Shown here: positions 31,043 through 59,322 of the stretch, piece by piece | How the letters are laid out: the number at the start of each line of letters is the position of its first letter | Numbering within the stretch: position 1 is the first letter of the stretch | Assembly: GCF_056712565.1 (NCBI RefSeq) | Contig: NZ_CM160072.1 | Strand: one strand, 5' to 3' | Length of the DNA: 64,000 nt | Notes under the pieces: generated by a model | Database searches by the model: none | What the model was told of the DNA's origin: nothing | Seen by the model: the letters and a program-made list of their open reading frames with translations, nothing else | Made by a program: the position numbers and the translations under genes

Positions 31043-31579
31043 ATGCGTCGCGCTAACGATCCGCAACGGCGAGAAAAAATTATCCAGGCCACGCTGGAGG
31101 CGGTGAAACTTTACGGAATACATGCTGTTACACACCGCAAAATTGCTACCCTTGCCGGGGTGCCGTTGGGATCGATGACCTACTATTTTTCAGGAATTGA
31201 TGAGTTGTTGCTGGAGGCGTTCAGCCGTTTTACTGAGATCATGTCCCGGCAATATCAGGCATTTTTTAGCGATGTTAGTGATGCTCCAGGCGCATGCCAG
31301 GCTATCACCGATATGATCTACAGCTCACAGGTCGCAACGCCGGATAATATGGAGCTGATGTACCAGCTCTACGCGCTGGCTAGCCGAAAACCGCTCTTAA
31401 AAACGGTAATGCAAAACTGGATGCAGCGCAGTCAACAAACGCTCGAACAATGGTTTGAACCCGGAACCGCCCGCGCGCTTGATGCGTTTATTGAGGGAAT
31501 GACGCTGCATTTTGTCACCGACCGTAAGCCGCTATCACGCGAGGAGATTTTGAGGATGGTTGAGAGGATTGCTGGGTAG
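31043..31579 (+). CDS. rcdA: TetR-family transcriptional regulator
   Basis: 178 aa from [21 protein letters not shown]...; TetR N-terminal HTH. Confidence 0.85.
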
Positions 31580-31628
31580 TAGATAAATTTCAGGCAACAA
31601 AAAAACCATTTATGTAAACGGGTTAATG

Positions 31629-31662
31629 AAAACAATAAGTTAGATTAAAAACAATAAGTTAG
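31629..31662 (+). repeat. 15-bp direct repeat AAAACAATAAGTTAG x2 in the attL region
   Basis: Copies at 31629–31643 and 31648–31662, between the rcdA stop and the integrase stop; candidate att core or Int arm sites. Confidence 0.4.
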
Positions 31663-31683
31663 GTTGGTGGTCAGTGGTGGTTA

Positions 31684-32736
31684 TTACGGGGTAATGCCAA
31701 CCGCTGCCGCCACTTTGTCGCCACTTGGCAGCGTTGCCAGAGGATTGAAACGGAGCGCCGTTTCCAGATGATCCGGTGCCAGATGTGCGTAACGCATAGT
31801 CATTTTTATATCGTGGTGTCCGAGAATTTTTTGTAAGGCCAGAATGTTTCCACCCGACATCATGAAGTGCGCCGCAAACGTATGGCGCAGAACGTGTGTG
31901 AGTTGACCGCGAGGGAGCACGATAGACGTTTTTTCCATCACGGATAAAAATTGAAAATAGCAGTCTGTGAAGAAATTGAACCCATCAAGCGCCATGATCT
32001 CTTCGTAAAGCTCTTTACTGATAGGGATGCTTCTGTTTTTCTTCCCCTTCGTTCTGACAAAGGTAATTCGGTATTTGGTCACCTGTGAGCGGGTAAGATT
32101 TACGGCTTCACGCCAGCGTGCGCCTGTGCTTAAGCATATCTTAACTACCAGTGCCAGAATTGGGTCCTGACGTTTGCAATCAGCCAGCAATTCAACAATC
32201 TGCTCATGGGTAAGCCATGCCATCTCTTTTTCTGCGATGGTGAATTTTCGCATGTTCTCCAGTGGGTTCGGATACGACCATTCGCCCAGACGGGATAGTT
32301 CGCTAAAAACACTACTTAGATAGCTTTGCTCCAGGTTAATGGTGACCGGGCTTGCTCCTTTCTTCCATTTCTCGCTGAAGTAGATCTCGCCTGTCAGGCG
32401 TTTATCTCGATAATGGGCAAACATTTTAGAGGTGAGATCGGTTGCAAGAGGATTGCCCAGAGCGTCAACCATCAACAGCAATTTGTCATAGACATGCTGC
32501 CCAGCTGTCAGAGATTTACCATGTAGTTTGAACCATAGCTCAACCACGTCTTTCAGTGTTCGACGATCCACTGATTCACCCAGCCAGGGCTTTGCTTCGG
32601 TTTCTTCCATCGTGTGGCGCTCAAAAGCCAGTGCTTCGCCTTTGGTGGCGAATTGTTTACGCACACGACGCCCACTTCGTCCGGCGGGGTAACATTCGCA
32701 AAGCCATTTCCCAGTGGTGAGTTTTCGTACTGCCAT
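31684..32736 (-). CDS. int: phage integrase (tyrosine recombinase, P2-type)
   Basis: About 350 aa from MAVRKLTTGKW...; C-terminal catalytic region with HVLRHTFA and LGHHDIKMTMRYAHL (R, H-x-x-R, Y). Confidence 0.9.
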   Translation of the reverse strand: MAVRKLTTGKWLCECYPAGRSGRRVRKQFATKGEALAFERHTMEETEAKPWLGESVDRRTLKDVVELWFKLHGKSLTAGQHVYDKLLLMVDALGNPLATDLTSKMFAHYRDKRLTGEIYFSEKWKKGASPVTINLEQSYLSSVFSELSRLGEWSYPNPLENMRKFTIAEKEMAWLTHEQIVELLADCKRQDPILALVVKICLSTGARWREAVNLTRSQVTKYRITFVRTKGKKNRSIPISKELYEEIMALDGFNFFTDCYFQFLSVMEKTSIVLPRGQLTHVLRHTFAAHFMMSGGNILALQKILGHHDIKMTMRYAHLAPDHLETALRFNPLATLPSGDKVAAAVGITP

Positions 32737-32924
32737 AAAAAATGCCCTCCAGTAGAGAGCATTTTTACTGTATGTATAACCAGTGTCAATGTATGAAATC
32801 CTACGACCATACATCTCACTGAAGCCATAATGAAGTTGGCTATTCTTTTTGCTATGTGAGCATGTAACTTTTGCGGTTAACCTGCGGCTCATTTTTATTT
32901 TAGACGCAGATATAAAAGCAAAAG

Positions 32925-33116
32925 TTATCGTGAGTTTTTAGTACAGATTTTTTTGGATTTACTAATAGTTCCATCATTGCAAACAAATTTTCCATCGGAG
33001 GTACAGTGAGAGACACCTCCCTTTTTCCCAGAACAAGGATAATTTTTAGCATAGGTAGTTAGTGGGCTTAATAACAAAGAGCATGATAAAACCACAAAAA
33101 ATACTTTACCAAGCAT
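32925..33116 (-). CDS. small Cys-rich secreted peptide (moron candidate)
   Basis: 63 aa; signal peptide [23 protein letters not shown]; mature about 40 aa with 5 Cys; AT-rich; between int and repressor. Confidence 0.4.
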
Positions 33117-33131
33117 AGTTTCCTCCCGGTA

Positions 33132-33701
33132 TTATCTAACATATTTAACTGTTAAACTTATAATTTTACCAATTATTTCAATGTCTTCTATCTTACATTC
33201 GAAGGCTCTGTTTCCACCCTCGACGAAGATTCTTCCACCGGGTAAACGAGTAATGTCACGGATCGTTACTTCGCCATCAATACTTATTACCCATTTACCA
33301 TCACGTATGTCATCAAATTCTTTATCACAAATAAATTCAGAATTGTTATCTGTGATGACAAAAGGTTTTTTAAACGTAGAGGGTAGAAATCCCTTATCAA
33401 AAATATAAAAACCGTCTTCACGCAAGGCACCATCAGATAATACATATTTAGCAACTTCCATAGTATTTGTATTACCTGAAGTTTGCTTTGAACCATGTCC
33501 GGTTGTGAGCCAATTAAGCGAGGTGCCCGTTTCAAGGGCGCACTGGATTACCCATTCTGCTGGGAATGAGTCACGCATGTAGCGTGTGGCGAGTGTACTT
33601 TTAGAGATTCCTAAATGATCGCACAACGCCTGTCGAGTCTTGAATCCATAAGCTTCTACCATGCGCTCTATGGCGCCTCGTCCGCCTTTCTCCAAATTCA
33701 T
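33132..33701 (-). CDS. cI: 186 CI-like immunity repressor
   Basis: HTH region GRGAIERMVEAYGFKTRQALCDHLGISKSTLATRYMR; start taken at internal Met (MNLEKGG...) to leave a promoter region; adjacent and divergent to an Apl-like gene. Confidence 0.75.
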   Translation of the reverse strand: MNLEKGGRGAIERMVEAYGFKTRQALCDHLGISKSTLATRYMRDSFPAEWVIQCALETGTSLNWLTTGHGSKQTSGNTNTMEVAKYVLSDGALREDGFYIFDKGFLPSTFKKPFVITDNNSEFICDKEFDDIRDGKWVISIDGEVTIRDITRLPGGRIFVEGGNRAFECKIEDIEIIGKIISLTVKYVR

Positions 33702-33826
33702 GGTCACTCCAAGTGAACTTTTATCTTGACGATTTCGCCGTGCGATCGTATGTTTATGGTGTTCACAAAATACAAACGATCCGTATTCGTCCTGATTAAT
33801 CATCATTAAACGAGGAATGTTGCATC

Positions 33827-34048
33827 ATGAGACCTAACATTTCAATCACTCTTACCACGCCTCATGTGACTATTGAACGCTATAGCGAGCTGACAGGGCT
33901 ATCCATCGATACCATCAATGACATGTTGGCTGATGGACGCCTTATCCGTCACCGTCTGCGCAAAGATAAAAAACGCGAAAAAGTGATGATCAACATAGCA
34001 GCAATGACCGTTGATGCGCTTTCAGAATGCAATCTAAACCTTAATTAG
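33827..34048 (+). CDS. Apl/Cox-like excisionase-regulator
   Basis: 73 aa; small basic HTH protein ([11 protein letters not shown]) first in the rightward early operon. Confidence 0.55.
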
Positions 34049-34074
34049 TTCGATTCTGAAATACATCAGAGGCA

Positions 34075-34590
34075 TTGACCATGTTTGATTACCAAGTTTC
34101 CAAACATCCACATTTTGATGAAGCCTGTCGTGCATTTGCACTGCGCCACAATCTGGTGCAACTGGCAGAACGTGCAGGCATGAATGTGCAGATTCTGCGG
34201 AACAAGCTGAACCCAGCTCAGCCTCATTTATTAACCGCACCAGAAATCTGGCTGCTTACCGATCTGACTGAAGATTCAACGCTGGTAGATGGTTTTCTGG
34301 CACAGATTCATTGTCTGCCATGTGTACCGATTAATGAGGTGGCAAAAGAGAAACTGCCACATTACGTCATGAGTGCAACCGCAGAGATCGGGCGTGTTGC
34401 TGCAGGTGCGGTGTCTGGCGATGTAAAAACCTGTGCCGGTCGTCGTGATGCTATCAGCAGCATTAACTCTGTAACACGACTGATGGCGCTGGCTGCTGTT
34501 TCATTGCAGGCCCGTTTACAGGCTAATCCTGCGATGGCGAGTGCAGTTGATACCGTGACTGGCCTCGGTGCTTCATTCGGTTTGCTGTGA
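34075..34590 (+). CDS. CII-like phage regulatory protein
   Basis: 171 aa; position and size match 186 CII; HTH-like region [20 protein letters not shown]. Confidence 0.55.
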
Positions 34591-34597
34591 GGTGCTT

Positions 34598-34894
34598 ATG
34601 CTGACGAAAGAACCATCATTTGCATCGCTGCTGGTAAAACAAAGCCCGGCAATGCACTACGGTTACGGCTGGATCACGGGTGAGGATGGAAAACGCTGGC
34701 ATCCATGTCATTCACAAGATGAATTGCTGTCTGAATTGACCACGAGGAAACGGAGAAAGTCCAAATGTATGCGGCAGAAAGTGAAGTGGTTTATCAGTTT
34801 CGTTACAGAGGGGAGAGTTATTCAGTACCTGAAGATGATTTGCTCTGTTGCTATCCGTCATTGTCGGGAGATGGCAGTTACTTTTTCACGTTAA
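34598..34894 (+). CDS. hypothetical early protein (extent uncertain; overlaps next gene out of frame)
   Basis: Start MLTKEPSFAS with GAGGTG RBS; in-frame stop only at 34894, so the 3' part overlaps the next ORF. Confidence 0.3.
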   Translation: MLTKEPSFASLLVKQSPAMHYGYGWITGEDGKRWHPCHSQDELLSELTTRKRRKSKCMRQKVKWFISFVTEGRVIQYLKMICSVAIRHCREMAVTFSR

Positions 34895-34989
34895 AGGATG
34901 GGACGTTTTTACGGGGAGAGCAGGTTAAAGAGACGATACGAAAAAATGTATCTCCTCTTGAGCGTTACCGTAAGAACAAAGAACGATAG
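34765..34989 (+). CDS. hypothetical early protein
   Basis: 74 aa; GGAGA RBS 8 nt upstream of ATG. Confidence 0.45.
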   Translation: MYAAESEVVYQFRYRGESYSVPEDDLLCCYPSLSGDGSYFFTLKDGTFLRGEQVKETIRKNVSPLERYRKNKER

Positions 34990-35011
34990 CTGCGTTTGGG
35001 GAATATGAAGT

Positions 35012-35353
35012 ATGGCAATTAATGGCGCTGCAGCAACTGTTCCATTAAGCCCCGGTGAACGCCTGAATGGACTTAATCACATTGCGGAGTTAAGGGCGAA
35101 AGTTTTTGGCCTGAATATTGAGTCAGAGCTTGAGCAGTTTATTAAAGATATGCGTGATCCACGGGATATCAATAATGAACAAAATAAACGGGCACTGGCT
35201 GCCATATTCTTTATGGCAAAAATTCCAGCTGAACGTCATAGCATCAGCATTAATGAGCTGACCACTGACGAAAAGCGGGAGCTGATTAAAGCAATGAATC
35301 ATTTTCGTGCAGTGGTGAGCTTATTTCCCAGACGGCTAACCATGCCGAATTAA
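35012..35353 (+). CDS. hypothetical early protein
   Basis: 113 aa ORF in early operon. Confidence 0.5.
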   Translation: MAINGAAATVPLSPGERLNGLNHIAELRAKVFGLNIESELEQFIKDMRDPRDINNEQNKRALAAIFFMAKIPAERHSISINELTTDEKRELIKAMNHFRAVVSLFPRRLTMPN

Positions 35354-35420
35354 CCAACTAATGAAATTAATGGCGTAAACCCGCCGGGCATCCCTTTATC
35401 TAAATTCAGGAGAATTGATT

Positions 35421-35654
35421 ATGCGTAATATTGAAACCCTCTCGACCAAAACCGGACCGGATGACGCAGGGCTTAATATTTTACTGACAGAGGCTCGTCT
35501 GGAAGAACGCCGGGCAAGAGCAGAGGCAATGGCTGCCCGCCTTGATAGCCTTGCGTGCCATATCACATCCCGCCAGCTAAACCACGTCGAAGCGGCAGAA
35601 CTGCTGCGCGTGACTGCTGAAGCAATCCAGAACGAAGCGCAGGAGATCCACTAA
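35421..35654 (+). CDS. hypothetical early protein
   Basis: About 77 aa; coiled-coil-like; start at MRNIETL. Confidence 0.45.
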   Translation: MRNIETLSTKTGPDDAGLNILLTEARLEERRARAEAMAARLDSLACHITSRQLNHVEAAELLRVTAEAIQNEAQEIH

Positions 35655-35881
35655 TGGCTGATGCAATGGATCTCGTACAGCAGCGCGTTGAAGAAGAACG
35701 CCAGCGTCATATCCGTGCTGCCCGTGCCAAAACGCCGGGCGTGTCCCGCGTGCTTTGCATTGAGTGTGAAGCGCCAATTCCGCCAGCACGCCGCCGTGCC
35801 ATTCCAGGTGTGCAGCTTTGCATTACCTGTCAGGAAATCGCAGAGCTGAAAGGCAAACATTACAACGGAGGTGCTGTATGA
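35654..35881 (+). CDS. TraR/DksA-family C4 zinc-finger protein
   Basis: 75 aa; CIECEAPIP...CITCQ (CxxC-N17-CxxC). Confidence 0.7.
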   Translation: MADAMDLVQQRVEEERQRHIRAARAKTPGVSRVLCIECEAPIPPARRRAIPGVQLCITCQEIAELKGKHYNGGAV

Positions 35882-36735
35882 GCACCATCCTGAAATGGGC
35901 GGGAAATAAAACCGCCATTATGTCCGAACTGAAAAAGCATCTTCCTGCTGGCCCGCGACTGGTTGAACCTTTCGCGGGTTCCTGTGCAGTGATGATGGAG
36001 ACGGAGTACCCCAGCTATCTTGTTGCGGATATTAATCCTGATTTAATCAACCTCTATAAAAAGGTTGCTGCTGATTGTGAATCGTTTATATCTCGCGCCA
36101 GAGTTTTATTTGAGATCGCAAACAGGGAGGTGGCTTATTACAACATAAGGAAGGAGTTTAATTACTCAACTGAAATTACTGATTTCATGAAAGCGGTATA
36201 TTTCCTGTATCTCAATCGTCACGGTTACCGTGGTTTATGTCGCTATAACAAGAGCGGGCATTTCAACATTCCCTACGGCAATTATAAAAATCCGTATTTC
36301 CCTGAAAAAGAAATTCGCGCATTTGCAGAAAAAGCCCAGCGAGCAACGTTTATCTGCGCCAGCTTTGATGAAACGCTGGCGATGTTGAAGGCGGGGGATG
36401 TGGTGTATTGCGATCCACCGTATGACGGTACGTTTTCCGGCTATCACACTGACGGCTTCACTGAAGATGACCAGTATCACCTGGCATCTGTTCTTGAACA
36501 TCGGTCATCAGAAGGACATCCGGTCATTGTTTCTAACAGTGACACATCCCTGATCCGTTCGCTGTATCGCAATTTTACTCACCACTATATCAAGGTAAAA
36601 CGCATCATCGGTGTGGCAGCTGGCGAGGGTAAATCAGCAACAGAAATCATTGCTGTTTCCGGGCCGCGCTGCTGGGTGGGATTTGATTATTCGCGTGGCG
36701 TGGATAGTTCTGCCGTGTACGGAGTACGTGCATGA
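35878..36735 (+). CDS. Dam-like DNA adenine methyltransferase (orphan)
   Basis: 285 aa; LKWAGNK N-terminus, FAGS AdoMet motif, DPPY catalytic motif; start overlaps the TraR-like stop (ATGA). Confidence 0.9.
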
Positions 36736-39146
36736 GCCATGCCGATATGAACAACTGCTGCGGCTTTAACGAGGCTGCCGCAGCGTTCTCATGGAACAGC
36801 CCGAAAAAGGCCATTAACCCTTATCTGGACCCGGCGGAAGTTGCGCCGGTTTCTGCGCTTTCAAACCTGATCACTCTGTACGCTGCCGATAACGAGCAGG
36901 AACAGTTGCGCCGCGAGGCACTGAGTGATCAGGTCTGGGAGCGTTATTTTTTTAATGAATCACGTGATCCTGTCCAGCACGAAATGGAGCAGGATAAGCT
37001 CATTAGCCGGGCAAAGCTGGCGCATGAGCAGCAGCGTTTTAATCCGGATATGGTCATTCTGGCGGACGTCAACGCCCAGCCTTCCCATATCAGCAAGCCG
37101 CTGATGCAACGTATTGAATACTTCAGCAGCCTGGGCAGGCCAAAGGCTTATTCCCGCTATTTACGTGAGACGATTAAGCCATGTCTGGAACGACTGGAGC
37201 ATGTACGCGACAGCCAGCTATCTGCATCTTTTCGTTTTATGGCAAGCCATGTAGGGCTGGACGGCCTGCTGATTCTGCCTGAAATGAGTCAGGATCAGGT
37301 GAAACGCCTGTCTACCCTTGTCGCTGCGCATATGAGCATGTGCCTTGATGCAGCTTGTGGTGATTTGTATGCCACCGATGACGTTAAGCCAGAAGAAATC
37401 CGCAAGACATGGGAAAAGGTGGCAGCGGAAACCCTGCGTCTGGATGTCATCCCGCCTGCGTTTGAGCAACTCCGTCGGAAAAGAAACCGCCGTAAACCCG
37501 TGCCCTATGAACTCATTCCGGGTTCGCTGGCGCGTATGTTGTGCGCCGACTGGTGGTACCGGAAATTATGGAAAATGCGTTGCGAATGGCGGGAAGAGCA
37601 GTTGCGTGCTGTCTGCCTGGTCAGCAAAAAAGCATCTCCCTATGTCAGCTATGAAGCCGTGATGCATAAACGTGAGCAGCGCCGCAAGTCACTGGAGTTT
37701 TTCCGTTCTCATGAACTGGTGAACGAAGAGGGCGACACGCTGGATATGGAAGACGTGGTAAACGCCAGCAGCAGCAACCCGGCGCACCGCCGCAATGAGA
37801 TGATGGCCTGTGTTAAAGGTCTGGAGCTTATCGCGGAAATGCGCGGTGACTGCGCCGTTTTCTACACCATTACCTGTCCGTCACGTTTCCATTCCACGCT
37901 CAATAACGGCAGACCAAACCCAACCTGGACAAATGCGACGGTAAGACAAAGCAGCGATTATCTGGTCGGCATGTTTGCTGCATTTCGTAAGGCGATGCAC
38001 AAAGCCGGGTTGCGCTGGTATGGCGTGCGGGTGGCTGAGCCGCATCATGACGGTACAGTTCACTGGCACCTGTTGTGTTTTATGCGCAAAAAAGACCGCC
38101 GCGCCATTACTGCATTGTTGCGTAAGTTTGCCATCCGTGAAGACCGCGAGGAACTGGGTAATAACACTGGTCCACGCTTTAAATCTGAGCTGATAAACCC
38201 GCGCAAAGGAACGCCGACAAGCTACATCGCGAAATACATCAGTAAGAACATTGACGGGCGTGGTCTGGCTGGCGAGATCAGCAAGGAAACGGGTAAATCC
38301 CTGCGTGATAACGCTGAATACGTTAATGCCTGGGCGTCTCTGCATCGTGTTCAGCAATTCCGCTTCTTTGGTATTCCAGGGCGTCAGGCTTACCGTGAAC
38401 TGCGGTTGTTGGCTGGTCAGGCGGCAAGGCAGCAGGGTGACAAAAAAGCAGGTGCGCCGGTACTGGATAACCCGCGCCTTGATGCCATCCTGGCTGCTGC
38501 TGATGCTGGCTGTTTTGCCACCTACATTATGAGGCAGGGCGGCGTGCTGGTTCCTCGCAAATATCACTTGATCAGAACCGCTTATGAAATCAATGAAGAG
38601 CCGACCGCCTATGGCGATCACGGTATTCGTATTTATGGCATCTGGTCACCCATTGCAGAAGGCAAGATCTGCACTCATGCAGTGAAGTGGAAAATGGTTC
38701 GTAAAGCCGTTGACGTTCAGGAGGCGGCAGCCGACCAGGGCGCTTGCGCCCCTTGGACTCGTGGCAATAACTGTCCCCTTGCTGAAAATTTGAACCAACA
38801 AGGGAAAGACAAATCAGCTGATGGGGATACCAGGACGGACATTACCCGCATGGATGACAAGGAGTTGCACGATTACCTGCACAGTATGAGCAAAAAAGAG
38901 CGCCGGGAACTGGCTGCAAGGTTACGCCTGGTGAAACCGAAACGGCGTAAAGACTACAAACAGCGAATTATAGACCATCAGCGACAGCAGCTCGTCTATG
39001 AACTGAAGTCCAGAGGATTTAATGGCAGCGAGAAAGAGGTCGATTTACTCCTTCGCGGCGGCAGTATTCCGTCAGGAGCAGGCCTGCGTATCTTCTATCG
39101 GAACCAGCGTTTGCAGGAAGATGATAAGTGGCGAAACCTGTATTAA
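36732..39146 (+). CDS. A: replication initiation endonuclease (P2 gpA / 186 A family)
   Basis: 804 aa; HWHLLCF motif and tyrosine-rich active region (YIAKYISK). Confidence 0.88.
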
Positions 39147-39238
39147 TTACGCGGGTTAACAATTCGTGCTCTTAATAATACCAGGCATATCAGGCTAATG
39201 AACGTAAAAAAACGTTTTACATCAGTAAGATTATTATA

Positions 39239-39258
39239 TACTGTAAATATAAACAGTG
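39239..39258 (+). promoter_or_regulatory. LexA box (SOS operator)
   Basis: TACTGTAAATATAAACAGTG matches CTGT-N8-ACAG; 40 bp upstream of a small ORF plus dinI-like gene. Confidence 0.6.
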
Positions 39259-39299
39259 GTTATGTATACAGTATTGCTTGTGGTGTCATAGGAGGAAAG

Positions 39300-39488
39300 A
39301 TGCAGGACTATTTTTTGGAGTCTTTGAAGCTCCAGCGCATTGATTTTTTTCTTAAGCTTGTAGCGGCTAGTGAGTGTAGTGATGAAGAGAAGGGGCTGGC
39401 TTTGCAGTGGGTTTCTGAACTGACAGATGAACTCATGGCAAAAATCAGAACCCACGAATACAACCGCTCAATGGATGTCATCAGCTGA
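39300..39488 (+). CDS. small SOS-operon protein (possible Tum-like antirepressor fragment)
   Basis: 62 aa; GGAGG RBS; directly downstream of the LexA box and upstream of the dinI-like gene. Confidence 0.4.
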   Translation: MQDYFLESLKLQRIDFFLKLVAASECSDEEKGLALQWVSELTDELMAKIRTHEYNRSMDVIS

Positions 39489-39498
39489 GGTGACCTTT

Positions 39499-39732
39499 AT
39501 GCGCATTGAAATAATGATCGATAAAGAGCAGAAGATTAGCCAGTCTACCCTGGACGCCCTTGAATCCGAGCTTTACCGCAATCTGCGCCCCCTGTATCCC
39601 AAAACGGTAATTCGCATCCGCAAAGGTAGCTCTAACGGTGTGGAACTGACCGGACTGCAACTGGACGAAGAAAGAAAACAAGTGATGAAGATTATGCAGA
39701 AGGTGTGGGAAGACGACAGCTGGCTGCATTAA
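39499..39732 (+). CDS. DinI-family protein
   Basis: 77 aa; MRIEIMIDKEQ...VWEDDSWLH resembles DinI (MRIEVTI...); GAGGTGA RBS. Confidence 0.75.
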   Translation: MRIEIMIDKEQKISQSTLDALESELYRNLRPLYPKTVIRIRKGSSNGVELTGLQLDEERKQVMKIMQKVWEDDSWLH

Positions 39733-39891
39733 GAAAAGTTGCTGGCGTCTGAACTTGGTTCTGGCGTCAGCAAGGTTGAACAACGAGTACAGTGAGGCGT
39801 TAGGTGTGGCGTTTATTTGATGAGTGAACGCCCGTTCTGCGATAGGTTCGGAGATTAAGGTTGAAACTACGGGCAAAATACCATCTTTTTC

Positions 39892-40317
39892 CTACTTAAT
39901 TGAGTCCAGTAACAAGTTACAGTTACTCTCATTGTAGAGAGAACGAGCAATTAGTGTTACCTGCTTTCCATTCATTCCCGGCTTATCCCATAACACAGCT
40001 TCTTGCGACGCCACAAATTCAGCATAATCAATTATGCGTTGTTCGTGATCTGGTTCCTCATAGCCAAAGTATGAGAGCGCATCGTTGTAAGCGTGGTAAG
40101 CTGCTTTCTGTAATATCTTGATATCGGCTGTAGGTACTTGCTCCGTGTAGCTAGGATCTAATTGTGTGCTACTGCCATAGAATGCACATGAAAGGTAAGA
40201 TATTGATTTCTGTTGAGCTTTAGTTCCTTTCTCATAGTTTTTAGCTGTTACCGCCTGAACAGGGACGCTAACAAAGCTTGCAACCAGAATTAAAATTAAT
40301 ACGTAAAAGCTTTTCAT
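39892..40317 (-). CDS. secreted protein of unknown function (cargo)
   Basis: 141 aa; signal peptide MKSFYVLILILVASFVSVPVQA; lower-GC segment; opposite strand to flanking phage genes. Confidence 0.6.
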   Translation of the reverse strand: MKSFYVLILILVASFVSVPVQAVTAKNYEKGTKAQQKSISYLSCAFYGSSTQLDPSYTEQVPTADIKILQKAAYHAYNDALSYFGYEEPDHEQRIIDYAEFVASQEAVLWDKPGMNGKQVTLIARSLYNESNCNLLLDSIK

Positions 40318-40587
40318 TTTGACCTCAGCCGAAACGTTAGAGAGACTATCGAAATTTGTAAAACCCGTGGCGATTCAGTTTGAGATCCTCCCCCTTACAT
40401 GATTTTTAATCAAATATATGCTTTTGTAAGCATACCTGTTAACCGAATTATTTATTTTTAGAGATCTTCCGACATACTGATTATGCCCGCTGAGGAGTTC
40501 ACCTTGCGTAAAGTCCGATTCGCTTTACTCGTCTGTGCATGTCTATGCTGCATGAGATTGCATGATCGTTTGAGGATCGTTTTTGCT

Positions 40588-40617
40588 AAGGCCCGCCAGA
40601 ACTGGCGGGCTTTTGCG
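40588..40617 (+). terminator. rho-independent terminator
   Basis: GCCCGCCAG-aact-GGCGGGC followed by TTTTG. Confidence 0.5.
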
Positions 40618-40659
40618 TAGATCATGCTCCTGCATGAAAACCACTACATAAAGCGGGCA

Positions 40660-40678
40660 GGCGTGGCGGGGATACGAG
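40660..40678. other. cos-like site (P2/186-type cohesive end sequence)
   Basis: GGCGTGGCGGGGATACGAG; first 13 nt identical to the 186 cohesive end (GGCGTGGCGGGGAAAGCAT) as recalled from the literature. Confidence 0.45.
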
Positions 40679-40692
40679 CGCGCGCTTGCACC

Positions 40693-40721
40693 TTGATATT
40701 CACGGTTTGGTTAAGTATTGT
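40693..40721 (+). promoter_or_regulatory. putative sigma70 promoter for the protease operon
   Basis: TTGATA-N17-TATTGT about 40 bp upstream of the protease start. Confidence 0.3.
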
Positions 40722-40761
40722 CTTAGTCAGAGTCCATAACATATTACAGAATGGAGTTGTT

Positions 40762-41409
40762 ATGATTGGTCCTGAATATGTCGTAGTTGTTGGCGTGCTT
40801 AATGCAGGTTTGGTTAGTTTTTTAGGAACAGGTTTTTTTATTTCTAAGGATAAAATAATTACTTCCCGCCATGTTATTAATGGGTTTTCTTCTAACTTAG
40901 TTATTTCTCCATCTAATATAAATAACTTTAATAGTTATCAGGATACAAGTGTTGATAAATTTCAATGTATTGGAGTTGATGTTATTGATGAAGATCCAAT
41001 AAAAGACTTATGTGTGTTAAAAATTAAAAATGCACCTGTTTATGAACCTTGCCTAAAAATTGCTACTCTTGACGATGTTAATGTCGGTGAAGATGTGGGT
41101 ATTTTAGGTTTCCCACATTGTAATGAAAATAGAAAAGTATTGACATTTCAAACGGCAAAAATAGGTGCAAAAGTTTTACTTTCAAGCAGTAATATTCAAT
41201 CTAAACATGCCGTTATAAATATCCAAACCAGACCTGGTCAATCGGGATCGATTGTATTTAATTTAAAAAATGACTCGGTAATAGGCGTCTTGGTTGGCGC
41301 TTATGCAAATAATTCTGGAGGTTCTGTTTTGGTTGGAGGTATTAATCCAGCTGAACTACATCAGACAACTTATGCGGTTTCTGCAGAATATGTTAAGGAT
41401 ATGTTATGA
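40762..41409 (+). CDS. trypsin-like (S1/chymotrypsin-fold) serine protease, stand-alone domain
   Basis: 216 aa from MIGPEYVVVVG... (GGAG RBS); candidate triad His in GTGFFISKDKIITSRHV, Asp in DLCVLKI, Ser in RPGQSGSIVF; about 30% GC. Confidence 0.75.
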   Translation: MIGPEYVVVVGVLNAGLVSFLGTGFFISKDKIITSRHVINGFSSNLVISPSNINNFNSYQDTSVDKFQCIGVDVIDEDPIKDLCVLKIKNAPVYEPCLKIATLDDVNVGEDVGILGFPHCNENRKVLTFQTAKIGAKVLLSSSNIQSKHAVINIQTRPGQSGSIVFNLKNDSVIGVLVGAYANNSGGSVLVGGINPAELHQTTYAVSAEYVKDML

Positions 41410-41852
41410 TTGCTATACCAAATGAAGATGCTGAGTCTTGGTTGTCCACTTTAAAAACGTATCAATCTTCATCTGTCAGGAATTTTCTCGAAAATGGCGA
41501 TGAAGAAAAGGCTCTTGAGCTATGGCTAACTGCATCTGGCCCAAGTTCAGTTGCTCAATTTGGCGGTGATAATTCAAAAATGCCGGGAAGAAAAGCGTTT
41601 GTTGAGCAGTTTAAATTAGAGTTTAAGGCTTTTGTATGTGGAGGTGATAAATATGCAGAGGAGAGGGAATGTTTAGGAGCACTGACTGGTGATGTTAAAA
41701 CATACTTTGTAGGGGTGATCTCTTCGGCAATTGCGGGTTCTTTGGGGGCAACAGCAACATTTATTGCTCCAGCTGTAGTAATTATGTTGATAGCTGTCTC
41801 AAAAATGGGAATTAATGCTTGGTGTTCATTAGAGACAACGACAGAATCTTAG
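41406..41852 (+). CDS. small tail-anchored membrane protein, partner of the protease
   Basis: 148 aa; start overlaps protease stop (ATGA); C-terminal Gly/Ala-rich hydrophobic helix YFVGVISSAIAGSLGATATFIAPAVVIMLIAVS; AT-rich. Confidence 0.6.
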   Translation: MIAIPNEDAESWLSTLKTYQSSSVRNFLENGDEEKALELWLTASGPSSVAQFGGDNSKMPGRKAFVEQFKLEFKAFVCGGDKYAEERECLGALTGDVKTYFVGVISSAIAGSLGATATFIAPAVVIMLIAVSKMGINAWCSLETTTES

Positions 41853-41855
41853 GAA

Positions 41856-41880
41856 AACGCCCTTTTAGGGCGTTTTTTTA
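41856..41880 (+). terminator. rho-independent terminator after the protease operon
   Basis: AACGCCCT-ttta-AGGGCGTT followed by TTTTTTT; overlaps the portal gene stop on the other strand. Confidence 0.6.
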
Positions 41881-42906
41881 TAAATCATAATGCTGAAATC
41901 GGATAGTTTTCTCACCTAACCATTCATTAACTTCCATTATTCTTTTTTGGAGTGGAATTAGTTCATTTCTAACAAAAACCTTACTCGCCTTCTCCACATC
42001 CCCAAACCCTCCAACATTATTAGGCATTATCCCCATCATTTGTGGCGGCACACGATGCGCCGCCATCATGTCGTCCCGGCTCACGTTCTTGATATTCAGG
42101 AACTCATCCTTCGCCGCCACTTCTGACAACGGGATAATCTGAAGCCCGTCCTTTTTACCGTTAGGCGAGTACATAAACAGGTTACGGAAGTTACCAGGAC
42201 CTTTGGCACTTTTCATCGCGTTGCGGAGATTGTTCACATCCTCCTGATTCTGCGCGGCATCGGTCATATACATGATGAAGCCTGCATGGCTGCCGTTGAT
42301 GTAATACTTGCGGCGGAACAGCGTGGCGGACTTATTGAGCAGGGCTGACGGAATGGCAGAAAGATAGCCGGGCAGGCCGTAGATCTCCTGGTTGATGTCC
42401 GGTTCCATCAGATGAAAAATGCTGCCTTTCGTGAACTGATACGGCTGGGTTGTCATACCGTATTGCACAAACCAGTAGGTATCCAGGTCTAACCCGCGTC
42501 GGGTGTATTTTGCCAGCGCAGGATCAAGGGCGATAACTTCACCGAATCGGTTCGTGCGTTTCTCCAGGTAGGCGTTACCAAATACCAGATAGTCCTGCAC
42601 AAAACGCGAAAAAGCCTGCTGGCTGAGCAGCGGATGAGGGATATAGGTACTGGTCAGAATGTTGCACTTTACTGCAATCGGAGAACTGTGATGCACGGCG
42701 GCGCGGAAGGTGCGCGCCAGTCCGTCAAAGCTGACGGGCGGCTCATACCAGCGATCTGTCTGTACGCATTCCACATAGTCCAGCAGTTCACGGCGGTCCA
42801 GAACAGGAACGGGATCACCGAAGCTGAATGCTTCGGCTGAAGTCTGGCTTTTATGCTGGAGCTGGTTCGTCGACGCAGCGCGGTTCTTCTTACTCTTTCC
42901 CATCAA
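41878..42906 (-). CDS. Q: portal protein (P2 gpQ-like)
   Basis: 342 aa; size and position (upstream terminase on the same strand) match P2 Q. Confidence 0.88.
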   Translation of the reverse strand: MMGKSKKNRAASTNQLQHKSQTSAEAFSFGDPVPVLDRRELLDYVECVQTDRWYEPPVSFDGLARTFRAAVHHSSPIAVKCNILTSTYIPHPLLSQQAFSRFVQDYLVFGNAYLEKRTNRFGEVIALDPALAKYTRRGLDLDTYWFVQYGMTTQPYQFTKGSIFHLMEPDINQEIYGLPGYLSAIPSALLNKSATLFRRKYYINGSHAGFIMYMTDAAQNQEDVNNLRNAMKSAKGPGNFRNLFMYSPNGKKDGLQIIPLSEVAAKDEFLNIKNVSRDDMMAAHRVPPQMMGIMPNNVGGFGDVEKASKVFVRNELIPLQKRIMEVNEWLGEKTIRFQHYDL

Positions 42907-44582
42907 AAAATCTCCACAATATTACTGGTATTGGCGGACTCGCCCTGCAGTGGTTCGTTAAACAGTGCGTGCATTGTTGCCCAGGCCAGATCGGCGTGGC
43001 TGGCTTCTTCGCTGCGGCTGGCTTCATAGGTCGGGCGGTTGCCGCTGGCGGTGGTTGCGCGACGGATTGCCATGAATGACTGCGCAATGTCGGTGTGTCC
43101 GGCGTCAAACTCCAGACGGCGGTGGCTGATAATGTCGTAGGCCTTGAGTACCAGGGCGTTTTTAACGTTGGGGTTGTAGACAAACTCCCGGACGGCAGGA
43201 AAGAACGCTTTCACGTTCTCATAAACCCCGTGACCGACACCTGTCGAGTCGATGCCGATATATGTCACGTTGTACTGTTCGGTCAGTTTTTTGATGGCGT
43301 CCGCCTGGGCGCGGAAGTCCATCCCGCGCCACTGGTGACGCTCAAGAATACGGAACTTACCGCCCGGCACGGCTGGCGGAGCCACCACCACGCATCCGGC
43401 ACTGTCGCCGTTCTGCGTACCTTTTGCCGGGTCATAACCGATCCACACTTCGCGCCAGCCAAACGGGCGCAGCGCCAGTGCATGAAAGTCGGTCCAGACT
43501 TCCCAGCTGTCCACCATGCACGCCTGCAATTCGCTGAGCGGGAACACAGATGCGAGATCGTCAACGAACTCGCACATCAGCAGGTTCTGGTATTCGTCCG
43601 GGCTGTACTCCATGCGCAACTGGTCGAGGTCGAACAGGTTACAGCCGCCGCGTACCGCATCTTCCACGGTGACTATCTGGCGGTATTGCCCGTCTGCGCA
43701 CAGCAGGCCGGGGGCCAGATTGCTGTGGGACAGGTCGATGTCCACCTTATCGGCTTTGTTGCGCCCACGGTTGAACAACGCGCCGGACCAGAACGGATAA
43801 GCACTGTGGGTCAGGCTGGATGGCGTGGAAAAATAGGTCTGTCGCCATTTCTTGTGAATAGCCATACCGGAAGCCACTTTGCGCAGCTCCTGAAATTTTG
43901 GTATCCAGAAATATTCATCCAGATACAGGTTGCCGTGATAACTCTGGGCCGTGCGGGCATTGGTGCCTAGGAAGTAAAGCGTGGCCCCGTTAGGAAGCAC
44001 CATCGGATCGCCTTTCAGCTCCACCTCCACTTCTTTGGCGAAGTCGATGATGTACTGCTTAAAGACGTGGGCCTGTGCCTTACTGGCGGAAAGGAAAATC
44101 TGGTTACGCCCGGTAAGCAGAGCGTCAATCAGGGCTTCACGGGCAAAGTAAAAGGTTGCGCCGATCTGGCGTGACTTCAGCAGGTTGCGGATGCGGTTGT
44201 TTTTTCCGGCTTCCCACCAGTGGCGCTGGTAGTTGAACATGGAGGAATGGAAGATTTCTTCCAGCTTCTCAATCTGTTCATCGGTGAAAACGTTCTTTTC
44301 CGGCTGACGGCGCGGGCCTTTGTTGCGGTTGGCGACGTTAGGGTTTAAGTCGGCTTCGTTGCCGCCATTGTTAAACTTGCCGATCCGCGCATGGCGCTCC
44401 GACTGGCGCGCCAGCAGGTCAATCTCTTTGAAATCTTTCCCTTCTTTGTGCTCCTTCATAATGAGCTGGCAGTAGCGTGCGGCGGTGGTGAGCTGCATCT
44501 GATCCAGCGGCCCATAGTCACCCCACTTGTCGCGTTTTTTCCAGCTGTTCCAGTAAGTTTTTTCTAACGGAGCACGGCTCAT
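42903..44582 (-). CDS. P: terminase large subunit (P2 gpP-like)
   Basis: About 559 aa (ORF could extend to 44630 or start later); Walker-type ATPase plus nuclease; overlaps the portal start. Confidence 0.88.
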   Translation of the reverse strand: MSRAPLEKTYWNSWKKRDKWGDYGPLDQMQLTTAARYCQLIMKEHKEGKDFKEIDLLARQSERHARIGKFNNGGNEADLNPNVANRNKGPRRQPEKNVFTDEQIEKLEEIFHSSMFNYQRHWWEAGKNNRIRNLLKSRQIGATFYFAREALIDALLTGRNQIFLSASKAQAHVFKQYIIDFAKEVEVELKGDPMVLPNGATLYFLGTNARTAQSYHGNLYLDEYFWIPKFQELRKVASGMAIHKKWRQTYFSTPSSLTHSAYPFWSGALFNRGRNKADKVDIDLSHSNLAPGLLCADGQYRQIVTVEDAVRGGCNLFDLDQLRMEYSPDEYQNLLMCEFVDDLASVFPLSELQACMVDSWEVWTDFHALALRPFGWREVWIGYDPAKGTQNGDSAGCVVVAPPAVPGGKFRILERHQWRGMDFRAQADAIKKLTEQYNVTYIGIDSTGVGHGVYENVKAFFPAVREFVYNPNVKNALVLKAYDIISHRRLEFDAGHTDIAQSFMAIRRATTASGNRPTYEASRSEEASHADLAWATMHALFNEPLQGESANTSNIVEIF

Positions 44583-45930
44583 GACAGTGAAAGCAAAGCG
44601 TTTTCGCATCGGGGTGGAAGGTGCCACCACCGACGGACGCGAAATCCAGCGTGAATGGCTGGAACAGATGGCAGCCAGCTACAACCCGGCGGTGTATACC
44701 GCGCTGATTAACCTTGAGCACATCAAGTCTTATATACCGGACAGCACCTTTAACCGCTACGGCAAGGTGACGGCGCTGTTTGCTGAAGAAATCACGGAAG
44801 GTCCGCTGGCAGGCAAGATGGCGCTGTATGCCGACGTTGAGCCAACGGAGTCCCTGGTGGAACTGGTGAAAAAAGGCCAGAAATTATTCACCTCTATGGA
44901 AGTCAGCCCGAAGTTCGCTGATACGGGCAAAGCCTACCTGGTCGGCCTGGCTGCCACTGATGACCCTGCCAGTCTGGGTACGGAAATGCTGACATTCAGC
45001 GCCAGTGCAGCCCATAACCCGCTGGCAAACCGCAAGCAGAATCCTGCCATGACTGAGCAGTCCGGTCAGCTGCTGGGGCTGGGTGTTGGCAGCACCATTG
45101 CCGGAACCACTGACACCACCGCAAAAGAGCGTGAACCTGTCGATCCGACGCTGATGGTCGATGTGGAATATAAATGCGAGCAGACCAACTTTGACACGGT
45201 GCTGACCTACGCGAAGCTGGACCTGTGGGCGAAGTTTCAGGATTTCCAGGTGCGTATCCGTGACGCCATCGTGAAACGTCAGGCACTGGACCGCATCATG
45301 ATCGGCTTTAACGGCGTGAAGCGTGCGAAAACCTCCAACCGTAGTGAAAACCCGCTGCTGCAGGATGTGAACAAAGGCTGGCTGCAGAAAATCCGTGAGG
45401 ATGCACCGGATCACGTCATGGGCAGCACCACCACGGGCGGCGAAACCACACCGGGTGCGGTGAAAGTCGGTAAAGGGGGCGAATATGCCAACTTGGACGC
45501 TGTGGTGATGGATGCGGTCAATGAGCTTATCGACGTGGTCTACCAGGACGATGACGATCTGGTGGTGATTTGCGGTCGTGAACTGCTGTCTGACAAGTAT
45601 TTCCCGCTGGTCAACAAAGAGCAGGAAAACAGTGAAAAATTGGCAGCCGATATGATTATCAGTCAGAAACGCATGGGCGGTCTGCAGGCCGTGCGTGCGC
45701 CGTTCTTCCCGCCGAATGCGCTGCTGATCACCCGTCTGGATAACCTGTCCATCTACTGGCAGGAAGACACCCGCCGCCGTTCAGTTATCGACAACCCGAA
45801 ACGTGACCGGATTGAAAACTTTGAATCCGTTAACGAAGCCTATGTGGTTGAGGACTACCGCTGCGCCGCACTGGTGGAAAACATCCAGATTGGTGATTTC
45901 AGCGCCGCCGCAGCCGAAACCGGAGCGTAA
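44581..45930 (+). CDS. scaffold/protease (gpO-like N-terminus) fused in frame to major capsid (gpN-like) C-terminal region
   Basis: 449 aa; N-terminus FRIGVEGATTDGR...TSMEVSPKFADTGKAYLVGLAATDDPASLGTE resembles gpO; C-terminus YKCEQTNFD...LDLWAKFQDFQVRIRDAI...GFNGVKRA resembles gpN; interval is about 0.65 kb shorter than the O+N pair in P2. Confidence 0.65.
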   Translation: MTVKAKRFRIGVEGATTDGREIQREWLEQMAASYNPAVYTALINLEHIKSYIPDSTFNRYGKVTALFAEEITEGPLAGKMALYADVEPTESLVELVKKGQKLFTSMEVSPKFADTGKAYLVGLAATDDPASLGTEMLTFSASAAHNPLANRKQNPAMTEQSGQLLGLGVGSTIAGTTDTTAKEREPVDPTLMVDVEYKCEQTNFDTVLTYAKLDLWAKFQDFQVRIRDAIVKRQALDRIMIGFNGVKRAKTSNRSENPLLQDVNKGWLQKIREDAPDHVMGSTTTGGETTPGAVKVGKGGEYANLDAVVMDAVNELIDVVYQDDDDLVVICGRELLSDKYFPLVNKEQENSEKLAADMIISQKRMGGLQAVRAPFFPPNALLITRLDNLSIYWQEDTRRRSVIDNPKRDRIENFESVNEAYVVEDYRCAALVENIQIGDFSAAAAETGA

Positions 45931-45933
45931 TCC

Positions 45934-54527: not shown

Positions 54528-55930
54528 GCACAAAATTTTATACCCTGCTGACGGATATTGGCGCGGCGAAACTCGCCAGCGCCGCCGCGCTCGGTGTGCC
54601 TTTAAAAATTACCCATATGGCGGTCGGCGATGGCGGCGGAACATTGCCAACGCCGGACGCCAAGCAGACAGCATTGGTAAATGAGAAACGCCGGGCTGCG
54701 CTGAATATGCTCTATATCGACCCGCAGAACAGCAGCCAGATTATTGCTGAACAGGTGATCCCTGAAAATGAGGGTGGTTGGTGGATACGTGAAGTGGGCC
54801 TGTTTGATGAGTCCGGGGTATTGATTGCCGTGGGAAACTGCCCGGAAAGCTATAAGCCGCAACTGGCTGAAGGCAGCGGGCGTACCCAGACCGTGCGCAT
54901 GGTGCTGATTACCAGCAGTACGGACAATATCACCCTGAAAATCGACCCTGCTGTAGTACTGGCAACTCGCAAGTATGTGGATGATAAGGCACTGGAGCTG
55001 AAGGTGTATGTGGATGACCAAATGGCAAAACACCTTGCCGCAGCGGACCCACATTCACAGTATGCGCCAAAAGCCAGCCCGATATTTACCGGAACCCCCA
55101 AAGCGCCGACGCCAGCGGCGGGGAATAATACCACGCAACTTGCGACCACCGCGTTTGTTCAGGCGGCACTGACGGCCCTTATTAATGGTGCGCCAGCCAC
55201 GCTGGACACGCTAAAAGAAATAGCCGCAGCCATTAACAATGATCCGAAATTCAGTACCACCATTAACAATGCGCTGGCACTGAAAGCGCCGCTGTCGAGT
55301 CCGGCACTCACCGGAACGCCAACAGCCCCTACTGCCGCACAGTCGGTTAACAATACACAGATTGCCACTACGGCTTTTGTGAAATCGGCGATTGCAGCAA
55401 TGGTGGGGTCTGCACCTGCGGCACTGGATACATTGAACGAACTGGCGGCGGCGCTGGGGAATGACCCGAACTTTGCCACGACAATGCTTAATGCGCTAGC
55501 AGGTAAACAACCGCTGGACAATACGCTGACTAATTTGAGTGGAAAGGATGTTGCTGGTCTTCTCGCATACCTTGGTTTAGGAGAAGCGGCGAAAAGGGAT
55601 GTGGGCACAGGAGATAATCAGATACCGGATATGTCTTTCTGGTCTTCCGCATCGGGTGGCGTTAATTTCCCTAATGGATTCCAGATGCGATTCGGTGCTA
55701 TCGCTGGTAATGGTGGAAAATTATTTTCTACGCCATTTACAAATCAGTGCTATGGCATTGTTTTCGGACAAACATATGGAGCCAACTACTGGATGTTCAG
55801 CCCGATGTACAGAGCATCTGATCTGAGTAATACCAGTTTTGCATTCATTAACAAAGCCTGGTCTGGAATTCCGGGGACAGGTGCTCAGGACGCTGGTGAA
55901 TCAGTTTTTTATATTGCAGTAGGGTATTAA
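54524..55930 (+). CDS. H: tail fibre protein (gpH-like); C-terminal part lies inside the invertible segment
   Basis: 468 aa; repeated motif TTQLATTAFV / NTQIATTAFV and PxLTGTPTAPT repeats; crossover site inside the gene at 55560–55585. Confidence 0.85.
   Translation: MSTKFYTLLTDIGAAKLASAAALGVPLKITHMAVGDGGGTLPTPDAKQTALVNEKRRAALNMLYIDPQNSSQIIAEQVIPENEGGWWIREVGLFDESGVLIAVGNCPESYKPQLAEGSGRTQTVRMVLITSSTDNITLKIDPAVVLATRKYVDDKALELKVYVDDQMAKHLAAADPHSQYAPKASPIFTGTPKAPTPAAGNNTTQLATTAFVQAALTALINGAPATLDTLKEIAAAINNDPKFSTTINNALALKAPLSSPALTGTPTAPTAAQSVNNTQIATTAFVKSAIAAMVGSAPAALDTLNELAAALGNDPNFATTMLNALAGKQPLDNTLTNLSGKDVAGLLAYLGLGEAAKRDVGTGDNQIPDMSFWSSASGGVNFPNGFQMRFGAIAGNGGKLFSTPFTNQCYGIVFGQTYGANYWMFSPMYRASDLSNTSFAFINKAWSGIPGTGAQDAGESVFYIAVGY
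55560..55585. promoter_or_regulatory. DNA invertase crossover site (left), within tail fibre gene
   Basis: TTCTCGCATACCTTGGTTTAGGAGAA; 21/26 identical to the reverse complement of the site at 57351–57376, 14 bp perfect. Confidence 0.6.
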
Positions 55931-55931
55931 T

Positions 55932-56375
55932 ATGGAAATGGTTTATAGCGCCTCAAATAATAGTTTTTTCGCTAAAAATGATGTGGCGAAATATGAACAG
56001 GCCGGATGGGAACTTGCTGATATTGTCGAAGTGACATATGACACTTACCTGGAATTTATTGAAGACAGAACGTTGCAAGGGAAAGTACGCATCGCGGGTG
56101 ATGATGGCCTTCCCACCTGGGGGGAAATTCCACCGCCAACTCATGAGGAACAAATTGCCGCAGCCGAACTGGAAAAGCAGCAATTGATTAATCAGGTCAA
56201 CGAATACATATACAGTAAGCAATGGCCTGGTAAAGCAGCGATTGGTCGCCTGAAAGGTGAGGAACTGGCGCAATATAATTTGTGGCTGGATTATCTGGAC
56301 GCACTGGAACTGGTTGATACCTCCAGTGCTCCAGATATTGAATGGCCTACGCCTCCGGCAGTTCAGGCCAGATGA
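55932..56375 (+). CDS. tail fibre assembly protein
   Basis: 147 aa; C-terminal LDYLDALELVDTSSAPDIEWP motif shared with the convergent paralog. Confidence 0.8.
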   Translation: MEMVYSASNNSFFAKNDVAKYEQAGWELADIVEVTYDTYLEFIEDRTLQGKVRIAGDDGLPTWGEIPPPTHEEQIAAAELEKQQLINQVNEYIYSKQWPGKAAIGRLKGEELAQYNLWLDYLDALELVDTSSAPDIEWPTPPAVQAR

Positions 56376-56949
56376 CGTCCGGCGCTGTGCTGGTATCTGT
56401 TGCCGTCACCGCATCAATGTAATCCAGCACAGCGTTAAGTCGGGTGTTTTCTGTCTGCGTCAGCTTCCGCCCGGCCTGCAATTTCAGTTGAATCAGACTA
56501 ATGGAAGCCATTGCAGTATCAATCAGTGACTGACGCTGTGCTTCTGCCGCGTCTAGTGTGGCGCTATGCTGTGCCTCAGTATCTGTCACCCATTTCTCAC
56601 CATCCCATTCATCGTATGGCGTTAACGGGGCGATAGTGGTTGTATTTTCAGGGTAATCACCTGGTGCTGTGATTTCTTTTGATTCTCCTGTTTCGGTGCT
56701 AAAAACGATTTCACCGCGATGGTCTGGCACATATTCCCATGAGTTAAAATCTGCAGAACGGCAGATTGCATAACCAGCTTTACATGTAACTGGTGAATCT
56801 AAACAGGAATATGCAGGGATACCGACACCAATGGCAAGATATTCATTTGAAGTAGAAATATATTCCCGAGTTTTACCATCATAGTTATAGACGGTAATAT
56901 TCCCCGCCTTCGTGGCAATAATCTCGCTATTTAATACGGCGTTATCCAT
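56347..56949 (-). CDS. tail fibre assembly protein (alternative, opposite orientation)
   Basis: 200 aa; C-terminal LDYIDAVTATDTSTAPDVIWP. Confidence 0.75.
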   Translation of the reverse strand: MDNAVLNSEIIATKAGNITVYNYDGKTREYISTSNEYLAIGVGIPAYSCLDSPVTCKAGYAICRSADFNSWEYVPDHRGEIVFSTETGESKEITAPGDYPENTTTIAPLTPYDEWDGEKWVTDTEAQHSATLDAAEAQRQSLIDTAMASISLIQLKLQAGRKLTQTENTRLNAVLDYIDAVTATDTSTAPDVIWPELPEA

Positions 56950-57404: not shown

Positions 57405-57431
57405 CCCCGGTTTTTATTCAAGGAGATGATC

Positions 57432-57998: not shown

Positions 57999-58046
57999 AT
58001 CAGCTTTATTTTGATTATCCCTGAAAGCAGACAAATACCGTCATTT

Positions 58047-59313: not shown

Positions 59314-59322
59314 GGGGACAAC

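Follow-up and report, generated by a model that had tools for sequence, protein, structure and literature searches.

What do the two tandem copies of a 15-bp sequence at a prophage junction just downstream of rcdA represent? The sequence, AAAACAATAAGTTAG, lies on the plus strand at 31629-31643 and 31648-31662 of the 64,000-nucleotide stretch of contig NZ_CM160072.1 that we analyzed (hereafter the window), and the first-pass annotation had read the locus as a prophage in an intergenic site with the repeat as part of its attachment site, being either the att core or a pair of integrase arm-type sites. The prophage, the intergenic site and the place of the repeats within the attachment site all stood up to analysis, while both identities offered for the repeat did not. 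We argue below that the two 15-mers are probably IHF-type boxes in the P' arm, located between the core and the pair of Int arm-type sites, a reading drawn from sequence comparison.

The last host gene before the prophage is rcdA (ybjK; 31043..31579, plus strand), as defined by its ORF and by annotation in identical and related genomes, and the genes ahead of the prophage (mdfA, ybjH, ybjI, ybjJ and rcdA) are in the same order as in K-12. As stated in the first-pass annotation, rcdA is followed by ybjL in K-12: ybjL lies directly after rcdA in convergent orientation, and the P2-family prophage is seated between the two genes. The integrase stop, placed about 100 bp past rcdA in the first-pass annotation, is at 31684-31686, and the TAG stop of rcdA is at 31577-31579, so that the two stop codons are 104 bp apart. 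No tRNA or tmRNA gene is present in 29000-35000, in agreement with an intergenic site. The two copies of AAAACAATAAGTTAG are exact, they are the only two in the 64-kb window, and no further copy was found allowing up to 2 mismatches (expected number 0.09). In a repeat search the unit lengthened to 18 nt, with 17/18 positions identical and a spacing of 19 bp.

The prophage body (31610..64000, continuing past the window end) combines a 186-like early region with P2-like late genes, as established from ORFs, annotations, tail colinearity and the position of attR. The genes that come after int in the window are those for a CI repressor and a 73-aa Apl/Cox-like protein, cII, dam, a replication gene and P2-type late genes, and the window ends inside the prophage, past gpU. 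We took the right end from the lysogen APEC 16-1068, in which the 2541-bp attL region and the last 1243 window bases are 100% identical to the window. In window-equivalent coordinates, about 1.35 kb more of prophage lies beyond the window, extending to gpD, ogr, the P arm and attR, which gives a prophage length of about 33.8 kb. Between int and cI (32925-33116, minus strand) lies an ORF of 63 aa whose N-terminus resembles a signal peptide and which some identical genomes label as a YdcA family protein. The same slot holds a DUF4041 gene (MS8345, KP12) or other cargo in related prophages, and because this cargo differs from one prophage to another we consider the slot a moron position.

The right end of APEC 16-1068 reads, in order, gpD, ogr, about 65 bp, the 26-mer TAAATTTCAGGCAACAAAAAACCCAT and the ybjL side of the K-12 intergenic region. 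This 26-mer is common to attL, attR, attB and attP. Its attL copy, TAAATTTCAGGCAACAAAAAAACCAT (31584..31609), differs from it by A for C at 31605 and is the attL common core; it is the direct repeat present at both ends of the prophage and the stretch over which attL agrees with attB and attP. It has the general form TAAATTTCAGGCAACAAAAAA(A/C)CCAT, starts 5 bp past the rcdA stop and is present in a single copy in the window. The C form was recovered from attR of a lysogen with an identical attL (L004 2596-2621), and the empty site of AR_451, a prophage-free close relative, carries the C-form 26-mer exactly; K-12 attB matches the core at 22/26 positions, with the right 14 bp perfect. In records of excised forms (KP12, ESSI2_ev040 and ev129), ogr or cargo, the P arm, the core, the P' arm and int are contiguous, and the attP of each contains a core copy with at least one further difference from the 26-mer (19-25 bp shared). 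An inverted repeat, TAGATAAAT / ATTTATGTA, at 31580-31588 and 31608-31616, brackets the core with 19 nt between its arms. We considered it as the core-type Int sites but did not adopt this reading, its right half being phage-specific and having no counterpart in K-12 attB; the repeat may be connected with core-type Int binding or only with the hairpin described below.

The match of both K-12 and the prophage-free close relative to the window stops at 31609, and the first 15-mer follows 20 bp later. Both 15-mers belong to the phage and not to the host: they start +20 and +39 bp into the P' arm, are found there in attL as well as in the excised attP of KP12, ev040 and ev129, and are absent from attB (K-12 and the AR_451 empty site) and from attR. 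Presence of the same sequence in prophage-free strains, with no matching repeat at the other prophage end, had been named as the observation that would refute the first-pass reading, and the 15-mers are absent from prophage-free strains. As for the 15-mer being the crossover sequence itself, nothing favours this except its closeness to the junction; with no copy in attR, in K-12 attB or in the empty site of the close relative, with host homology ending at 31609 and with another sequence, the 26-bp core, serving as the repeat shared by attL and attR, the idea is refuted by the comparison of att sites. The interval 31584-31726 is the attL (B-O-P') junction of a PhiECO1-type, 186-like P2-family prophage.

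The int gene (31684..32736, minus strand) encodes a 186-type tyrosine integrase of 350 aa, and phage integrase is also its annotation in identical genomes. The protein matches two Pfam families, Int_N (3e-32) and Phage_integrase (7e-22). Its identity to 186 Int is 56% over 334 aa, compared with about 38-39% for Wphi/P2-like integrases. Its N-terminal region is conserved with that of 186 Int, and the positions proposed to discriminate between arm sites are occupied by W/E/Y, residues that have been linked to 186-type arm recognition (PMC3448106). The published arm-site consensus is tgTGGaCa for P2-type and tgccGCCActt for 186-type integrases (PMC3448106), and the sites annotated in the phage 186 record (NC_001317) give the consensus YAYCGCCAYTY. 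We located a P'1 site, TGCCGCCACTT, at 31705..31715 (plus strand, +96 from the core end), which matches tgccGCCActt exactly, and a P'2 site, TGTCGCCACTT, at 31716..31726 (plus strand, +107), both within the 3' coding end of int. A P1/P2 pair, TGCCGCCATTT and TGTCGCCATCG, is present just after the ogr stop in attR and attP, so that each arm has a tandem pair of arm-type sites at its outer edge. A search of attL and the P arm found neither the P2 arm motif TGTGGACA nor its complement. Judged by these sequences, the recombination module is 186-type and not P2-type. In CFT073, homology to the window ends immediately past P'2 and is followed by a 270-nt gene and an int with a different 3' end (L009 1880-2340). 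Since the homology stops right after P'2, this site marks the functional edge of the arm, and the replacement suggests recombination or cargo insertion exactly at the arm boundary.

Like arm-type sites, the 15-mers are tandem direct repeats located in an att arm and adjoining int, and the first-pass annotation had accordingly considered them as such. This is very unlikely, given that canonical 186-type pairs are found elsewhere, on both arms and at the 186 offsets (31705-31726 and just after ogr), and that the integrase retains the conserved N-terminal region of 186 Int, including the W/E/Y arm-recognition residues; moreover, the 15-mer is unlike YAYCGCCAYTY, and its P-arm relative is inverted and single.

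Each 15-mer contains the 13-mer AAACAATAAGTTA, located at 31630-31642 (+21..+33 from the core end) in copy 1 and at 31649-31661 (+40..+52) in copy 2, both on the plus strand. This 13-mer matches the IHF consensus WATCAANNNNTTR at 12/13 positions, the sole mismatch being, in both boxes, A in place of the T of WATCAA. The consensus, with its CA and TT core elements, represents one half of a footprint of >25 bp (PMC10380432; bioRxiv 10.1101/382655). Single matches are frequent: allowing up to 1 mismatch, we found 65 in the window against 58 expected, about 1 per kb. The reconstructed attP, about 205 bp long when measured between the outermost arm sites of P and P', contains 3 boxes, a density that is suggestive but not decisive alone. 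The third of these, AAATCATGATGTTAG, is located in the P arm, 11-23 bp from the core and in inverted orientation; it matches the repeat at 11/15 positions and the consensus with 1 mismatch.

The pattern of conservation points in the same direction. We compared eight intact lineages (window, KP12, CFT073, 813R9, M9682, Res13, ev040 and EC200461), and all eight carry both boxes at fixed offsets, 19 bp apart. W2, A6, A7, T12 and T13 are the same in all ten distinct 15-mers, and position 14 varies only between A and G; changes fall on the N positions and the two flanking positions, nearly every variant retains CA and TT, and in M9682 and Res13 box 2 matches the IHF consensus perfectly. Because the compared lineages are related, this conservation is not fully independent evidence. 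Complete identity of the two boxes (15/15) was seen only in the window-type lineage, and a comparison by eye found the boxes about half alike elsewhere, so that the perfect 15-bp repeat is a feature of the lineage and not the functional unit. On the other side of the core, three P arms (window type, ev040 and ev129) each contain, at a common offset, a minus-strand box that departs from the consensus at no more than 1 position (AATCATGATGTTA, AACCAACCACTTA and AATCAATAGATTA); the boxes retain the specified positions and differ from one another at all four N positions. We rejected the notion that these P arms are unrelated, as they are 43-51% identical in register, and for the same reason the argument from the P arm rests on which positions are conserved and not on independence.

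As a reference we used phage 186 (Eganvirus ev186, NC_001317), whose features are annotated from DNase I footprints, and counted positions from the last core base. The 186 record contains three Int arm sites on the left and two on the right, with IHF footprints to the left and right of the core; between the right IHF footprint and the right arm sites are five Apl sites, which occupy +45..+91. The order is the same in 186 and in the window phage: arm sites, IHF site (in the window phage, IHF-type box), core, IHF site (IHF-type boxes), Apl region (candidate RDF region), arm sites and int. The right arm sites are at +96 and +107 in both phages and IHF-like box 2 is at +40..+52 in both, with IHF-like box 1 at +20..+32 in 186 and +21..+33 in the window phage. 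The right IHF DNase I footprint of 186 (+27..+56) covers box 2 and half of box 1, and the left footprint (-36..-10) spans the place at which the window-type P arm has its box (-23..-11). Outside the arm motifs the arms of the two phages are not alignable, and it is this that makes the shared geometry meaningful. Since the 19-bp spacing is shorter than the IHF footprint of >25 bp, both boxes could hardly be occupied together. The 186 footprint extends over only half of the position of box 1, which may therefore be no more than the A/T-rich half of the box-2 site.

By analogy with 186 and lambda, we propose that host IHF would bind in any case at the box-2 position, and possibly at either box, together with the one inverted box in the P arm. 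IHF bound at these positions would bend the arms sharply, allowing Int bound at the distal arm sites (TGyCGCCAyTT) to reach the core, with its N-terminal domains holding the distal arm sites and its catalytic domains acting at the core. The intasomes for integration and for excision would assemble on arms bent in this way, as they do in phage 186 and lambda.

The alternative closest to this proposal in location is that the 15-mers are operators for the phage's own 73-aa Apl/Cox-like recombination directionality factor (RDF; 33827-34048), whose binding to the P' arm would favour excision. RDF sites are direct repeats in the P' arm, and the 186 Apl sites (+45..+91) begin within the box-2 position (PMC7498355; 186 record). 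The dimensions do not agree, however: Apl-type operators are about 6 bp long, are spaced by 10-11 bp and are needed in sets of at least three adjacent copies (PMC7498355), compared with two 15-mers at 19 bp here. An RDF with both functions would be expected to meet its words in the cI/apl switch region as well. The att region of the window and its cI/apl switch region share 2 7-mers against 1.8 expected, none of them from the 15-mers, whereas the same comparison was positive in the 186 control (ten shared 7-mers against 2.9 expected). The best match to the 15-mer in the switch region is 9/15, and a related box in inverted orientation on the P arm is not an RDF pattern. We conclude that operators of this kind are an unlikely explanation of the 15-mers. 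Co-variation between the 15-mers and the RDF was uninformative, because 63/73 positions of the Apl-like protein are identical in the phages of the window, MS8345, KP12 and 813R9. A 10-bp periodic repeat, TGGTGGTCAG/TGGTGGTTAT (TGGTGGT), is located between box 2 and the int stop (31665..31684, plus strand), in the stretch matching that of the 186 Apl operators, and this positional analogy makes it a candidate region for excisionase binding. The cI/apl switch region has no words in common with it, and AHB30 carries three copies of it (L094 about 1565-1600).

The 15-mers might also have no function of their own and reflect a recent local duplication or homogenisation in an A/T-rich spacer between core and arm. 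The restriction of the 15-bp identity to the window-type lineage, with boxes only about half alike elsewhere, fits such an event, as does the fact that single consensus matches are not rare. Duplication does explain the perfect identity in the window lineage, but it explains neither the fixed offsets (+21 and +40) and spacing, which are retained across lineages that are about 75% identical in the P' arm, nor substitutions that avoid exactly the IHF-specified positions, and the positions agree with a footprinted site in 186; as an account of the repeats as a whole we find it rather improbable. A Fis site was considered for the 15-mer and rejected by eye. The Fis motif has G...C ends, which the 15-mer does not have. 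We further considered that the boxes, too close together for joint IHF occupancy and yet keeping their 19-bp spacing as far as 186, could form a two-register switch in which IHF occupies box 1 or box 2 to set the geometry for integration or excision, or else that they could bind a factor other than IHF; judged from the sequence, either is a long shot. IHF-type boxes thus remain our preferred identification of the two 15-mers.

The core also bears on transcription termination at the site. Folding of the K-12 empty site gave, on the minus strand, a hairpin of -23.3 kcal/mol (z -3.85) followed by UUUUUUGUU (L001 3081-3145), together a probable intrinsic terminator of ybjL. The last five bases of the stem, as well as the U-tract, come from the core, and for this reason attR is predicted to rebuild the ybjL terminator intact, which would parallel the duplication of tRNA 3' ends by other phages. 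A smaller hairpin with the same U-tract was predicted by folding, after int, at the core end and proximal P' arm (31603..31624, minus strand; AACCCGUUUACAUAAAUGGGUU-UUUUGUUG in attP), with energies of -9.1 kcal/mol (z -2.06) in the KP12 attP and -4.1 kcal/mol (z -0.30) in the window attL; in ev040 it is a perfect palindrome, CCCATTTATATAAATGGG. It is a possible terminator of the int/lysogenic transcript. A simple terminator scan flagged neither the ybjL hairpin nor the attL hairpin, having missed the former because its loop is too long for the scan rule.

The base at 31605 is A in 12/760 genomes with the junction and C in attR of the same lysogen, in empty sites and in all attP copies. When registered with 186, this position falls within 31602-31608, the equivalent of the predicted 7-bp crossover, and A at 31605 accounts for the weaker int-side hairpin of the window (-4.1 vs -9.1 kcal/mol). 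By analogy, the A may impair excision; that it goes as far as locking the prophage in place is conceivable but doubtful.

Several relatives of the region were examined besides the intact lineages. A decayed relative of the arm is present at another chromosomal locus in 2015C-3121 and AHB30 (L093 and L094, 1480-1640), with an int pseudogene, one arm-type site, a differing sequence at the core position, and boxes that have two mismatches each and an 18-bp spacing. In the diverged prophage of Res13 (L003 3740-4330), about 650 bp separate the arm sites from int and contain a long run of near-identical units of about 30 bp, rich in CCACC/GGTCC when read on the plus strand; this run may represent a small repetitive gene. 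In M9682, the stretch at the expected attR distance is already past ybjL, indicating an element shorter than the full prophage. The record OM835953.1 (Klebsiella phage KP12 clone KP12_3; L005) has Vequintavirinae in its taxonomy line and encodes ogr, gpD, P2-type tail genes and a 186-type int with the same core and arm, nearly identical to the E. coli prophages; this is the gene content of a P2-family temperate phage, and the record is probably that of a co-induced prophage deposited under another phage's name. IMG/VR loci with this integrase (L010-L089) were left out of the comparison, nearly all of these contigs ending 3 bp past the int stop, before the arm.

The main value of the analysis is a correct annotation of the junction, in which the core, the IHF-type boxes, the arm-type sites and a possible RDF region are now labelled. 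The case also illustrates that the direct repeat that stands out most at a prophage junction is not necessarily its core or a site for integrase. Integration vectors aimed at the rcdA-ybjL site could be designed with the help of the geometry shared with 186, and the current understanding of site-specific recombination is unchanged by these findings.

Prophages at this site are already known. PhiECO1 (E. coli HS), PhiECO2 (ATCC 8739) and PhiECO3 (CFT073, 908870-942351) have been reported to share one integration site (Nilsson, Cardoso-Palacios and Haggard-Ljungquist 2011, PMC3448106). PhiECO3 starts at 908870 in CFT073, where rcdA ends at 908853, and its site is that of the window prophage. The PhiECO-type prophages have the core, the P' arm with both 15-mers, the arm sites and the 186-type integrase as in the window, and the CFT073 junction is the same as that of the window except for the SNP at 31605 and two changes in and next to the boxes. 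CFT073 differs in carrying a moron and a different int 3' end right after P'2, and the window prophage has other cargo between int and cI. The cI-apl spacer of the window is 125 nt long (33702-33826), the length reported for the PhiECO1/2 immunity class (PMC3448106). That paper covers cores and arm repeats and mentions IHF 0 times. The P' arm is present in 1153/5426 complete E. coli genomes (21%), including CFT073 and BL21. With its integration site published in 2011, the prophage is common and catalogued, and the feature is an ordinary one.

Phage 186 and the window phage have in common the arm motif YAYCGCCAYTY and the cI/apl/cII/fil layout of the early region. They differ in their target, as 186 integrates at the 3' end of tRNA-Ile (ileY) with a 36-bp core and the window phage in an intergenic terminator with a 26-bp core and no tRNA. 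Integration at a tRNA or tmRNA gene is a tendency of the 186 type and not a strict criterion, and the attB used here is the intergenic ybjL terminator. Furthermore, the left arm of 186 contains three arm sites, its int is separated from the arm by orf69, and its Apl operators (TTGCCA) are defined, whereas in the window phage int abuts the arm, so that P'1 and P'2 are in the 3' coding end of int, and the similarity of the RDF to Apl is no more than marginal (E = 1e-4 over 20 aa).

With P2, the window phage shares the virion and late-gene family (Peduoviridae) and an attP design with Int arm repeats on both arms. The P2 attP has a core of similar length and requires IHF (established knowledge and PMC3448106). 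The P2-type arm motif tgTGGaCa is absent from the window phage, its switch is CI/Apl/CII and not C/Cox, and the rcdA-ybjL site, for which a comparison with known P2 integration sites had been suggested, is not among the P2 loci in E. coli (locI, II, III and H). Lambda has an integrase of another lineage and other arm motifs, and it does not have two boxes within one footprint length, as the window phage does with its 19-bp spacing. Its IHF sites (H1, H2 and H') are nevertheless WATCAANNNNTTR boxes that, on either arm, separate the core from the arm-type Int sites, as here, and the role that we propose for the boxes of the window phage, that of intasome bending elements, is the same as that of the lambda sites.
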